DNA from: Candidatus Methanosuratincola thermotaenarum
GTDB lineage: Archaea; Thermoproteota; Methanomethylicia; Methanomethylicales; Methanomethylicaceae
NCBI GenBank assembly: GCA_038801655.1
Contig: JAULTB010000003.1
Span: 1-42,051, forward strand
Direction of reading: 5' to 3'
Length of the DNA stretch: 42,051 nucleotides
Below are positions 36,048 to 39,341 of this stretch, piece after piece (the first letter of the stretch is position 1; each line of letters starts with the position of its first letter). A model generated the notes under the pieces. That model saw nothing but the letters and a program-made list of their open reading frames with translations. It searched no databases and was not told the DNA's origin. The translations under genes and the position numbers were made by a program.

Positions 36048-36593
36048 TTATCCGCCAATCGACTTGATCAGCTCCTCCTTTAGGTCCCTCTGCAAAATCT
36101 GCTGGTAAGCGCTTACCGCCTTCGAGGATCTCTGTCCCAAGAGCTTCCTGCAGATCGAGGGGTCCCGCACAGTCTCCAGCAGCCGGATCGCGAAGGCATG
36201 CCTCCAACTGGCGACCCTTATCCTCCTCCCGAGGATCATCTCTGTGTACTTGTGGTTTATGTTGAGCGCCTGCCTGCGGGTCAGCCCGAAGATCCTTTCC
36301 TCTGCTTTCTTGTCCTTTGCATAGTCCTTGAGATATGGCAGTATCGAGGGCATTATCAGAACCTCGCGTGCATCCCCCTCCTGCCCTACACGGGCTATCC
36401 CATGCTGGAAATCAATGTCCCCTTTCCTAATCGAGATCAGCTCGGACGTCTTCATGCCTGTCGTCGGATAGAGGCTCATCAGGACGAAGTCCCTAAGGCT
36501 TATCTCCCTCTTCCTGTACAGGGACCTTATCCTGTCCAGGAACTCGCCGACTTCCGACCATGTTGGGACATCGTCAAGTTTCAGCTTTGCCAT
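36048..36593 (-). CDS. Short tyrosine-recombinase-like protein, catalytic domain only, with degenerate active-site residues
   Basis: Paralogous along its whole length to the next gene. It has TGMKTSE (Arg-I is Lys), ASWRHAF (His-II is Ala, Arg-II kept) and LLGQRS (His-III is Gln). The Tyr is kept in SAYQQI. Confidence 0.75.
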   Translation of the reverse strand: MAKLKLDDVPTWSEVGEFLDRIRSLYRKREISLRDFVLMSLYPTTGMKTSELISIRKGDIDFQHGIARVGQEGDAREVLIMPSILPYLKDYAKDKKAEERIFGLTRRQALNINHKYTEMILGRRIRVASWRHAFAIRLLETVRDPSICRKLLGQRSSKAVSAYQQILQRDLKEELIKSIGG

Positions 36594-36617: not shown

Positions 36618-37181
36618 TCAGTTTATCTTTATCGCGTCTGAAACCTCTTTCATCCTGTCGCCTATCGTGAAGTCCAGATAGATCTTAACGGTCTCCAGCC
36701 TCGAGTGACCGATCAGCCTCCTGCAGAGCTCAATGTCCCTTGTCTTCTCGAGGATGCGTATCGCGTAGGCGTGGCGCAGGGCGTGGCTCCTGATGCGCCT
36801 GCCCAAAAACCTCTGCGTGTACCTGTGGGTTATGTTGAGCACTTGGCGCCTGCTCAGGTCGAATACCCTATCGCCCTGTACCTGCTTGAAGTACTCCTTG
36901 ACAAATGTCTTCAGGTCCTGGCTGAGGATAGTCTGCCTGGCGAATTCGTCCTTCTTCTTCAGCTGGGTTATTGTAATGATGTTGGTCTCGAAGTCAAAGT
37001 CGGACTTCTTGAGGAGCAGGAGTTCAGACGTCCTTATCCCGGTCGTGGCGAGCAAGCCTATGACGCAGAGGTCCCTGAGCGGTGCCTCGCCTTGCCTGTA
37101 AGCCTTGATCATTGAGCCGACGAGGACCTCAACCTCCCTCCAGGACGGGACGTCCCTCAGCTCCAGCCTCTGCTTGGGCAC
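36618..37181 (-). CDS. Short tyrosine recombinase (phage-integrase family), catalytic domain only, canonical active site
   Basis: TGIRTSEL (Arg-I), a K-rich beta hairpin, HALRHAYA (His-II/Arg-II), and LIGHSRLETVKIY (His-III and Tyr). GTG start with a TTTATA-like box about 40 nt upstream. Confidence 0.8.
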   Translation of the reverse strand: MPKQRLELRDVPSWREVEVLVGSMIKAYRQGEAPLRDLCVIGLLATTGIRTSELLLLKKSDFDFETNIITITQLKKKDEFARQTILSQDLKTFVKEYFKQVQGDRVFDLSRRQVLNITHRYTQRFLGRRIRSHALRHAYAIRILEKTRDIELCRRLIGHSRLETVKIYLDFTIGDRMKEVSDAIKIN

Positions 37182-37232: not shown

Positions 37233-37796
37233 TCAAAGATCCAAAACAACATCGAACAAATCCATCAGCTTTCCAAGCTGCAGCCTTTCCTTATCGTTTA
37301 TTCCAGACCCCTTGTCGCCGAAGAAACCCCCCCAGTAAGCAGTCCCAACAAATGTCATCGCCTGGGCCACTGCTTCACCGAGCAGCTCTGCGCTTCCGGA
37401 CTGCAGGTAGATTGTAATGTCGTTCGCAAAAAGCACAGGCGTTGGCGATGCAATGTACTGTGATAAACATGGCTCGATCGCTAAGGCATTCTGCTTGGCC
37501 AGGCACACAACTTCTTCTGCGGTGGAACCTTCGAGTCGTGGTGCAACTATGCGCTTAGGCGCAGCGTATAGTATCCGCGCCCTTGTCGAAGCGGGAATGG
37601 CAAGCCGCCCGCCCACCTTTCTACCCCCCACGGGCTTCTCTTCCGGGGCCATGTCGATCACTGTTATTGCGCCGGGTCCTTCCGACTCGGCAGCCTCAGC
37701 CAGGAGGCGGCTTAGCAGGGCGGTCTTACCTCTCCCGACCTCCCCGCGTATCAGCGTCTTCTTGCCCTTGATCGCCGCGTAGCTAATCCCATTCAA
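37233..37796 (-). CDS. Uncharacterised P-loop NTPase, translationally coupled to thiW
   Basis: Walker A is GEVGRGKTALL, followed about 25 aa later by ITVIDMAPE. There is no ABC signature. The TTG start is preceded by GGAGGGG at 5 nt and overlaps the thiW stop by 14 nt. Confidence 0.7.
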   Translation of the reverse strand: MNGISYAAIKGKKTLIRGEVGRGKTALLSRLLAEAAESEGPGAITVIDMAPEEKPVGGRKVGGRLAIPASTRARILYAAPKRIVAPRLEGSTAEEVVCLAKQNALAIEPCLSQYIASPTPVLFANDITIYLQSGSAELLGEAVAQAMTFVGTAYWGGFFGDKGSGINDKERLQLGKLMDLFDVVLDL

Positions 37797-38307
37797 TTAC
37801 GCCCCTCCTCTTCAGGGCCAAAATTACAAGATAGCCCATTAATGCCCCGGGGACGCTGCTCATCAGGAAAAAGACTGTGAACAGCTGCCACTGGGCAGTC
37901 AGCCCGAGAAATGGGGGCAACTGGGCTGCACCAATGGCTGGCGCAACCAGGAACGCGCTCAGCAAAGCCCCGATCGCTGTGCCCAACGGCTCTGTGAGGG
38001 CTACTGCGTCTTTCCTGACTAAATAATTGTAAACCAAACCGACCACCAATGCGCCTGGGATCCCACCAGGCAAGGCAAAAAAAGTGCCCGTCCCTATGCC
38101 TATCCGTATTATGCCGATCAGCCCGGCCACAATGCCCGCGTTAAGCGGACCGAGCAGGATTCCTGCAACCACATTTACCATATGTTGGAAAGGGAAGACC
38201 TTTGTTGGTCCCACTGGGAATGCCCCTGGGAAAATCGATAAAGAAACACCAAGCGCAACAAATATTGATGAAAGGACTAACCGGTAAGTTGGGGTTTTTA
38301 AATGCAT
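37783..38307 (-). CDS. thiW: ThiW-type thiazole/thiamine-precursor transporter S-component
   Basis: VFPFQHMVNVVAGILLGP ... GTGTFFALPGGIPGALVVGLVY matches my recollection of ThiW, and a TPP riboswitch lies directly upstream. The in-frame TTG at 38364 (GGAGGG 9 nt upstream) is an alternative start. Confidence 0.75.
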   Translation of the reverse strand: MHLKTPTYRLVLSSIFVALGVSLSIFPGAFPVGPTKVFPFQHMVNVVAGILLGPLNAGIVAGLIGIIRIGIGTGTFFALPGGIPGALVVGLVYNYLVRKDAVALTEPLGTAIGALLSAFLVAPAIGAAQLPPFLGLTAQWQLFTVFFLMSSVPGALMGYLVILALKRRGVIEWD

Positions 38308-38371
38308 TATTTTTTTATTCTTGTAATTAGGCTTTTTCTCAAGATTTTGCCTTTTTGAAGCCAAACAGCAT

Positions 38372-38455
38372 GTCCCTCCGCTGGAATTGCCCAGATCAGG
38401 TTCAAAGGGTCGGCGACGGATCAAGTCACCCTCTCAGCCCCTTTCCAGGAGCTCC
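38372..38455 (-). promoter_or_regulatory. TPP (THI-box) riboswitch aptamer
   Basis: The minus strand reads CUCCUGGAAAGGGGCUGAGAGGGUGACUUGAUCCGUCGCCGACCCUUUGAACCUGAUCUGGGCAAUUCCAGCGGAGGGA. It carries the invariant CUGAGA, ACCC...GAACCUGAUCUGG.(U)AAU.CCAGCG and closing GGGA elements. A TATA-like CTTATAAA sits about 30 nt upstream (38483-38490). Confidence 0.85.
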
Positions 38456-38746
38456 CCCTTTGCACTCCAACTTTCCTGTAAGTTTATAAGTATTCCTATT
38501 ACCTGTTTATAGGGATGGCAAACATTTTTTATTTTAATAGTCAAAACATTTAAACTAGATAATAAAAATTTAAAATTTAGGATTTTTTACCATAATTATA
38601 ATAAGGATTAATAATATTTAATATTATATGGCTTTTCTTATCTTGTTTAAGTTAGTGCTAACCAAATCAGCGAATATTAAAAATTTTTATAAAAATAAAA
38701 GTTATCTATATTTTAAAAAATAATACGAAAAAATTAATTTAAATTG

Positions 38747-38946
38747 GACGGTTTTAGCCCACCATCAAATCGCGTTCCCTGAGCGGAAGCCAATGTTTTA
38801 AGTGTCTCAGGGGGCGATAAGCGCACTGGGCTTTAGCGGTTGGGCAGGGATGAGTGAGAGGTCTATGCGACACGAAATATCCTTGCAGTTTCTGATGTTT
38901 GAGGGGGAATTAAATTTGAAGAATCGTCGCCCGGGGCCGCCGTTTT
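38747..38946 (+). ncRNA. Candidate structured ncRNA (G+C-rich island in an A+T-rich spacer); family not recognised
   Basis: Nested helices: 38756-61/38827-32 encloses 38774-83/38806-15 (10 bp, 2 G-U). 38836-45/38929-40 (10 bp, 2-nt bulge, 2 G-U) encloses 38846-51/38879-84. A TATA-like TTTTAAAAAA lies about 30 nt upstream and a T5 run at 38943-47. The G-U pairs work only on the plus strand. Confidence 0.3.
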
Positions 38947-38949
38947 TAT

Positions 38950-38980
38950 CATTTCCCAATCTAGGTGAGAATGGGAAATG
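38950..38980 (+). terminator. Perfect 9-bp hairpin followed by T-rich tract
   Basis: CATTTCCCA (38950-58) pairs with TGGGAAATG (38972-80) around a 13-nt loop. TTTTTCCTTTTATTTT follows within 30 nt. Confidence 0.25.
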
Positions 38981-39341
38981 GTGCAAAGGCGGGATCTGCT
39001 GAAATTTTTCCTTTTATTTTCTTATTATGGAAATTTTGGGAAATAAGAATTTTCGCGGGGGTTCTGAGGATTTAGGGGCGGCCTACAGGATCCCAAAAAC
39101 ATTTTTATTAAAAAATGATTAATATTTTAAATGAAAAAAATGCATTGGTATTCAGATTATTTTTTAATTTGCATTTTTATTTTCCAAAACGCTCCGCCCC
39201 CATTTTTGTAAATTAGTTTACTATGAACGCTAGAATCTAGATGCAAGTGAAAGAACTCTTGGTATCAGATATCTTGAGAGATTTGCTAAAAAACCATAAA
39301 TTATTATATAACAAAAGCTACCATTAACACAGGCGAGTGCT

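Follow-up and report, generated by a model that had tools for sequence, protein, structure and literature searches.

The thiW locus and its gene neighbourhood

The window, the 42,051-nt stretch of contig JAULTB010000003.1 from Candidatus Methanosuratincola thermotaenarum that was analysed, carries on its minus strand a TPP riboswitch aptamer (38356..38468) followed by two overlapping genes. The first gene, thiW (37783..38364), predicts a 193 aa protein that matches PF09512 (7.7e-35, 120.7 bits) and the TIGR02359 equivalog model (127 bits, cut-off 84.35). When compared over the 174 residues from an internal ATG at 38307, the predicted ThiW shares 95% identity with that of M. verstraetei LCB70 and 87% with that of M. 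petrocarbonis LWZ-6. LCB70 (locus L005) has the most similar thiW of the relatives, at 94% protein identity. The second gene (37233..37796, minus strand) overlaps the end of thiW by 14 nt and predicts a P-loop NTPase of 187 aa, proposed here to be the second member of a riboswitch-controlled unit. There is no Pfam model for this protein family, and its members are mostly annotated as hypothetical. The P-loop gene lies directly downstream of thiW in nearly all of the thiW loci fetched (e.g. L005, L010, L025-L028 and L041), and this adjacency spans Methanomethylicia, Nitrososphaeria, another Thermoproteota family and Desulfobacterota.

Directly past the thiW/P-loop unit are tandem genes of the phage integrase family, predicting proteins of 181 and 187 aa (36048-36593 and 36618-37181, minus strand). 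On the other side, the thiW promoter is separated from the next gene by an 870-bp spacer (38469-39341), most of which is very AT-rich, although an island around 38760-39000 is GC-richer. The spacer contains no notable ORF, no tRNA and no Rfam match.

ThiC was not found in the complete genomes of the genus. In the same genomes, Thi4 matches are confined to a short N-terminal part of the profile, while matches to ThiM (hydroxyethylthiazole kinase) and ThiE (TMP-TENI) are weak, partial and located inside much longer frames. The medium used for the M. petrocarbonis isolate was supplemented with B1, and yeast extract was essential (PMC12244365). Taken together, these features indicate that the riboswitch probably governs uptake of thiamine or a precursor in an auxotroph and, given that ThiC was not found and that the Thi4, ThiM and ThiE matches are partial, the thiW/P-loop pair may import and phosphorylate thiamine or a precursor. 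The thiW leader is the sole TPP match of the window's genome (RF00059 search of the 1.09-Mb, 80%-complete assembly), which marks the pair as the only predicted TPP-controlled unit in an apparently thiamine-auxotrophic methanogen.

Fold, conservation and 5′ end of the TPP aptamer

A THI-box aptamer on the minus strand had been proposed from a reading of the sequence alone, with a covariance search as the suggested check. That search, with RF00059, covered the model in full (positions 1-105) and returned 64.5 bits (E 1.5e-10), which exceeds the curated gathering score of 54.3. Together with compensatory changes over 17 loci (below), this leaves the aptamer as a certain, genuine member of the class. 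The aptamer core, P2 through GGGA, occupies 38373..38458 and is backed by covariation and pairing counts. In the Rfam structure, 38455-38458 pair with 38406-38409 (P2), 38448-38452 with 38437-38441 (P3), 38425-38430 with 38412-38417 (P3a), 38398-38400 with 38375-38377 (P4), and 38391-38394 with 38381-38384 (P5), all on the minus strand. The CUGAGA motif (38432..38437) forms the pyrimidine-sensor joining region J3/2, and both this motif and the ACCC...GGAGGGA block are present as the sequence-only reading had quoted them.

Pairs were counted in an alignment of 17 sequences, the window plus 16 loci of its taxonomic family. Over the whole Rfam structure, P1 to P5, 84% of 476 cells are paired, a level reached in none of 500 shuffles, and sliding the partners out of register lowers the value to 34-55%. 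P3a is paired in every sequence and all six of its pairs covary. Covariation is also seen in P3 and P5, and these three are among four aptamer helices with compensatory changes. The columns of the ligand-contact motifs CUGAGA, ACCUGA and GCG.AGGGA are invariant in all 17 sequences. Two further measures were uninformative: the fold of the whole leader (z = -0.69), and an extension of P2 into J2/4 via the A-rich 5′ end, which is pairable in 13-14 of 17 sequences and shows no covariation.

A TATA-like box, TTATAAAC, at 38482..38489 (minus strand) is a probable archaeal promoter. It is an AT-rich 8-mer whose distance from the aptamer is fixed: in each of the 16 family loci with available upstream sequence it ends 23-28 nt before P2. 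The centre of an archaeal TATA box usually lies at about -26/-27, and this spacing, applied to the position of the box, predicts a transcription start site (TSS) near 38459 ± 3, only 0-5 nt before P2. A start at this position would explain why a 5′ strand for P1 is missing. The spacer upstream holds two further features conserved within the genus, another TATA-like box (38503-38510) and the motif GGTAATAGGAA.

Transcript data were taken from four metatranscriptomes of one study on a mixed culture, which cover the orthologous region of LCB70 (L005). RNA contigs start at L005 positions 1541, 1548 and 1609, within the aptamer (L005 1501-1613), and continue into thiW. They also cover the LCB70 orthologue of the P-loop gene. 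The 3′ two-thirds of the aptamer is thus joined to thiW in RNA, and a TSS downstream of the aptamer is excluded in LCB70. In all four runs the 400 nt upstream lack cover, and missing cover upstream of L005 1541 was not counted as evidence for a TSS there. Contigs from three runs start 35-45 nt or further into the aptamer (L005:1541-1613), not at the predicted TSS, and these internal starts may represent either loss of 5′ ends or a real internal 5′ end.

Putative ribosome-binding site, probable start codon and proposed mode of control

The sequence GGAGG at 38375..38379 (minus strand) is a putative Shine-Dalgarno (SD) sequence embedded in the aptamer. In the Rfam alignment its first G comes from the conserved GCG, its second G is unpaired and its AGG is a strand of P4, and the nucleotides of the ribosome-binding site hence form part of the ligand-binding domain. 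The fourth pair of P4 is unpaired in 16 of the 17 family loci, which makes A38377 the first paired base of the SD. GGAGG is complementary to CCUCC at the 3′ end of 16S rRNA, which is GGAUCACCUCCU (...CACCUCCU) in two complete genomes of the genus; the window's own genome has no assembled 16S.

A first test of SD usage, in which a 5-mer SD was found for 604 ORFs against 524 in the control, barely discriminated and positional profiles were therefore used. Relative to candidate starts in the window's genome, SD-like 4-mers are about 4-fold enriched when they begin at -12/-11. The maximum for GGAGG falls at -14 to -11 ahead of ATG, and ahead of TTG candidates its frequency is elevated between -16 and -12. 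The GGAGG of thiW begins at -15 in the genus, 2-3 nt beyond the genomic optimum, a spacing that is longer than optimal but usable. In other genera of the family GGAGG begins at about -12, which is optimal. GGAGGGA is also present in 10 of 31 bacterial aptamers and, because it is common there, no claim is made that the first G of the SD is an adaptation. The sequence-only reading had assigned the SD-like GGAGG to an in-frame TTG, and had correctly placed the end of GGAGGG 9 nt before that codon. Comparison supports the assignment but relocates the element, which lies in the 3′ strand of P4 and the G of GCG and not in P1.

The in-frame TTG (38362..38364, minus strand) falls 7-8 nt after GGGA in all eight loci of the genus and is the sole in-frame start common to them. 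Public gene calls in the relatives give proteins of 192-193 aa (98-100% coverage of the 193-aa query), and in nine more distant loci of the family thiW opens with an ATG, GTG or TTG 3-6 nt past GGGA. The choice of TTG 38364, made earlier from the sequence, is therefore well supported by comparison as the probable true start of thiW. The mechanically predicted ORF began further upstream, at a TTG (38424) inside the P3a loop. This codon is a substitution unique to the window's genome, with CTG in the six genus relatives that have the position, and it is the reason why the supplied ORF runs through the aptamer. Comparative evidence thus agrees that the N-terminal extension is spurious, and corrects the thiW start in this genome.

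Out of frame, ATG 38371 does open the 10-codon ORF MLFGFKKAKS (38339..38371, minus strand) pointed out previously, which is probably non-functional. The ATG is replaced by CTG in L003 and L007 and by ATC in L006, i.e. it is missing in three of the eight genus loci, and GGAGG begins merely 8 nt before it, outside the preferred range. On these grounds the short ORF was rejected as a conserved regulatory element. GGAGGG does lie directly upstream of this ATG, with a gap of 2 nt and not of 3 nt as had been given.

These features suggest that the leader is probably a minimal translational OFF switch, lacking a separate expression platform, in which the ribosome site is occluded directly. The aptamer would constitute nearly the entire 5′ leader of the thiW/P-loop operon, with transcription predicted to begin within a few bases of P2 and thus leaving no closing P1 stem. 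GGAGG is supplied by the aptamer itself, from the G of GCG in the pyrophosphate pocket and the 3′ strand of P4, with the predicted start, TTG 38364, 8 nt past the terminal GGGA. Binding of TPP would lock the P4/P5 arm against P2/P3. Three pairs of this arm hold the AGG of the SD and the pocket includes its first G, so that the locked arm could hide the SD, and probably the nearby start codon, from the small ribosomal subunit. Synthesis of ThiW would then fall, as probably would that of the overlapping P-loop protein through coupling. We infer the OFF direction from the function of the regulated gene. When TPP is absent, the weak P4/P5 hairpin could be opened at a growth temperature of about 55 C. 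Growth of the M. petrocarbonis isolate spans 35-65 C and is best at 55 C (PMC12244365). In the model of the apo RNA, it costs 8 kcal/mol at 37 C to open the region from SD to start, and 5-6 kcal/mol if the temperature is raised to 55-65 C. The nearest-neighbour model also leaves AGG about 75-80% paired even when no ligand is bound, and the ON state would therefore depend on the ribosome or on heat to open P4.

The aptamer and the start codon are separated by just 8 nt. No run of at least 5 T occurs between the aptamer and the coding sequence at this locus, and no conserved alternative helix or anti-SD segment was found between the aptamer and the SD. There is consequently no room for either a platform of the thiM type or a terminator. 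A terminator-like hairpin at 38366-38383 was discarded, with one match against 1.3 expected by chance and no conservation, and to our knowledge hairpin terminators are not used by archaea. The same features make it unlikely that the aptamer acts mainly at the RNA level, whether through premature termination, Rho-like or aCPSF-type cleavage or 5′-end-dependent decay, with any translational effect secondary. Decay in the 5′-to-3′ direction could be affected by folding of an aptamer predicted to lie at the extreme 5′ end, and T5 tracts do follow a short upstream ORF (uORF) in some thiC leaders of other Thermoproteota. However, oligo-T is missing here and the start follows after 8 nt, the distance that is constrained throughout the family is that from GGAGGGA to the start codon, as a translational mechanism predicts, and a 5′ structure stabilised by ligand should shield the mRNA, the opposite of what feedback repression requires.

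Direct occlusion of the SD would also lose its force if ThiW were translated from ATG 38307 (38305..38307, minus strand; codon 20 of thiW), with the TTG-initiated tail an untranslated leader and the riboswitch either exerting no direct control or acting from afar. ATG is the preferred start codon, and the tail is poorly conserved as protein: differences at the three codon positions number 136/145/182 in the tail against 110/52/448 in the core (eight genus loci), consistent with weak constraint and little purifying selection. Against this, the ATG, called the conservative start in the sequence-only reading, is found in the window's genome alone among the eight members of the genus, being ATA in L002, L003, L004, L005, L006 and L009 and ATC in L007. 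Apart from the TTG, L007 and L009 have a single in-frame start within 130 nt of the aptamer, the adjacent GTG (starts at +8 and +11). The tail, from TTG to codon 20, is 19 codons long and free of stops in all eight loci, and it is included in the 192-193 aa gene calls of the relatives. As had been noted previously, ATG 38307 is not preceded by an SD. Initiation there in place of TTG is accordingly improbable, and ATG 38307 is best regarded as an internal Met codon that could serve as a second start outside the control of the switch in this genome.

In the sequence-only reading, a P1 helix formed by CUCC and GGAG closes the aptamer, its 3′ strand is the SD, and TPP-stabilised P1 sequesters it. 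Bacterial riboswitches commonly sequester the SD by a mechanism linked to P1, and GGAGG does stand before the conserved TTG. However, both the Infernal/Rfam alignment and covariation assign CUCC to P3, as 5′ strand of the hairpin GCUCC/GGGGC, and the GAGG of GGAGGGA to P4, as the 3′ strand opposite CCUG, while the preceding G is part of the conserved GCG of the J5/4 pocket. The P1 that Rfam assigns in the window is just GCA/UGC, with two mismatches at its flank. Across the 17 family loci only 47% of P1 cells are paired, and the in-register run from the junction averages 0.8 bp with 2.2 of the first 5 positions pairable, which is about the chance level. The same script applied to bacterial flanks (27 of 30 flank pairs from Desulfobacterota aptamers) gives 4.6 bp and 4.3 of 5 positions, usually as CGCU/AGCG. 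When flank-flank duplexes were searched freely, energies were better than those of shuffled flanks in one of the 17 family loci and not in the other 16. Neither of two other candidates was retained. Rfam's own P1 (GCAAA/CAUGC) has only 3 pairs and is not conserved, and a longer helix between the 5′ leader and the start codon, at -7.9 kcal/mol in the window and -9.4 kcal/mol in L005, is at shuffle level in other members of the genus. The comparison thus gives good support to the view that this family of 17 loci has no conserved P1. A CUCC/GGAG closing helix can be considered highly improbable and, while the core idea of a ligand-dependent OFF switch that sequesters the SD is supported by comparison, P1 would not be the means. 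TPP aptamers normally need P1, and its loss would suit an inactive relic that was acquired or inherited with thiW and no longer regulates, but compensatory changes in P3, P3a and P5, ligand-contact motifs that are invariant across at least five genera, and retention of an RF00059 match in 15 of 24 family genomes render a relic scarcely credible.

Distribution and comparison with known riboswitches

RF00059 matches were found in 15 of the 24 other genomes searched from the family, distributed over five of ten genera and including 8/8 in the genus, and in none of 16 searched genomes from other families of the class. Across Thermoproteota, 30 of 151 sampled genomes (about 20%) have a match, these being spread over several other families. 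Earlier riboswitch counts, for any class, were 6 in Crenarchaeota, 1 in Thaumarchaeota and 1 in Korarchaeota (McCown et al. 2017, PMC5473149). TPP aptamers are hence far commoner in Thermoproteota than older counts suggest, and the statement that archaeal examples are few and mainly of the Thermoplasma type is outdated. The thiW/P-loop loci of Desulfobacterota and Nitrososphaeria were searched with flanks of up to 3 kb. No RF00059 match at the gathering score was found at any of them, nor in one whole Nitrososphaeria genome. The association of riboswitch and thiW hence seems confined to some Thermoproteota, and the idea that bacteria donated a riboswitch-thiW cassette was rejected on the basis of these searches.

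Leaders that appear to be of the same minimal design are found in other Thermoproteota families. In L050, L052 and L053, GGAGGGA is followed by an ATG, at +4 to +6, ahead of genes for small membrane proteins, and the downstream transporter genes differ. In contrast to the thiW leader, L045 and L047, from other families of the phylum, show an evident P1 and a platform of roughly 45-50 nt. With L048, L054 and L055 they represent a single Thermoproteota genus in which P1 is GGUAGCU/AGCUACC and a downstream segment, CUCCUUCUUCUACCGCC, is complementary both to GGAGG and to the 5′ strand of P1. This arrangement resembles a classical strand-exchange platform and precedes the gene for an ABC substrate-binding protein.

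Some thiC leaders of Thermoproteota have a short uORF directly after the aptamer. In L014 (1350-1500, minus strand), which belongs to the same family as the window but to another genus, an ATG at +5 past the TPP aptamer opens a 40-codon uORF whose TGA stop overlaps the GTG start of thiC (GTGA), and this suggests riboswitch control of thiC by translational coupling. L044 and L046, from another Thermoproteota family, have thiC starts 84-86 nt past GGGA, and L044 includes a 14-codon uORF at +6. The spacers of both contain a T5 tract, a possible archaeal termination signal.

The TPP riboswitches of Methanomethylicia and several other Thermoproteota might form a distinct minimal subclass, with the aptamer at the 5′ end of the mRNA, no P1 or platform, the SD in the pyrophosphate arm and control by direct occlusion, although we advance this broader grouping tentatively. 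If it is correct, direct occlusion would be a mechanism not listed for the TPP class in a 2024 JBC review (PMC10907184), and the uORF-coupled thiC leader of L014 would extend the same principle. The question bears on how an RNA switch of bacterial style is connected to archaeal gene expression. We know of no experimental demonstration that a riboswitch controls translation in archaea. The thiW leader is a very simple test case, in that its approximately 100 nt are entirely aptamer and contain the ribosome site, and the genus has cultured representatives, LCB70 and LWZ-6, that are grown on B1-supplemented media.

Archaeal TPP riboswitches have been reported in Thermoplasmatales (Rodionov et al. 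2002, as cited in PMC5473149), and that report aside, no specific prior description of archaeal TPP expression platforms was found in the literature searched. The Thermoplasmatales examples resemble the thiW leader in their archaeal host and in the position of the aptamer ahead of thiamine transport genes, but they belong to another phylum, the thiW leader being from Thermoproteota, class Methanomethylicia.

The E. coli thiM type shares with the thiW leader the aptamer core P2-P5, the CUGAGA, ACCUGA and GCG-AGGGA motifs, a location in the 5′ leader of a thiamine-related gene and an expected TPP-responsive repression of translation. However, thiM has a P1 and a separate platform with a strand-exchanging anti-SD, neither of which is seen here; the thiW leader carries its SD within P4, and just 8 nt separate the aptamer from the start. 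For the Desulfobacterota sample, the median distance from GGGA to the first long ORF is about 85 nt, and only one doubtful case of 31 falls within 8 nt.

The TPP class is treated as the model for strand exchange, and SAM-II and preQ1 are among the riboswitches that act by direct occlusion (PMC10907184). The thiW leader resembles the latter ('Group 1' in that review: SAM-II, SAM-III/SMK box and preQ1-I/II) in having its ribosome-binding site within the ligand-binding domain, such that binding of the ligand itself would hide the site and no separate platform would be needed. The direct-occlusion riboswitches differ in fold and ligand, being pseudoknots or small junctions with SAM or preQ1 as ligand, while the thiW leader has the two-armed TPP fold, for which occlusion is predicted from the position of the SD in the P4/P5 arm.
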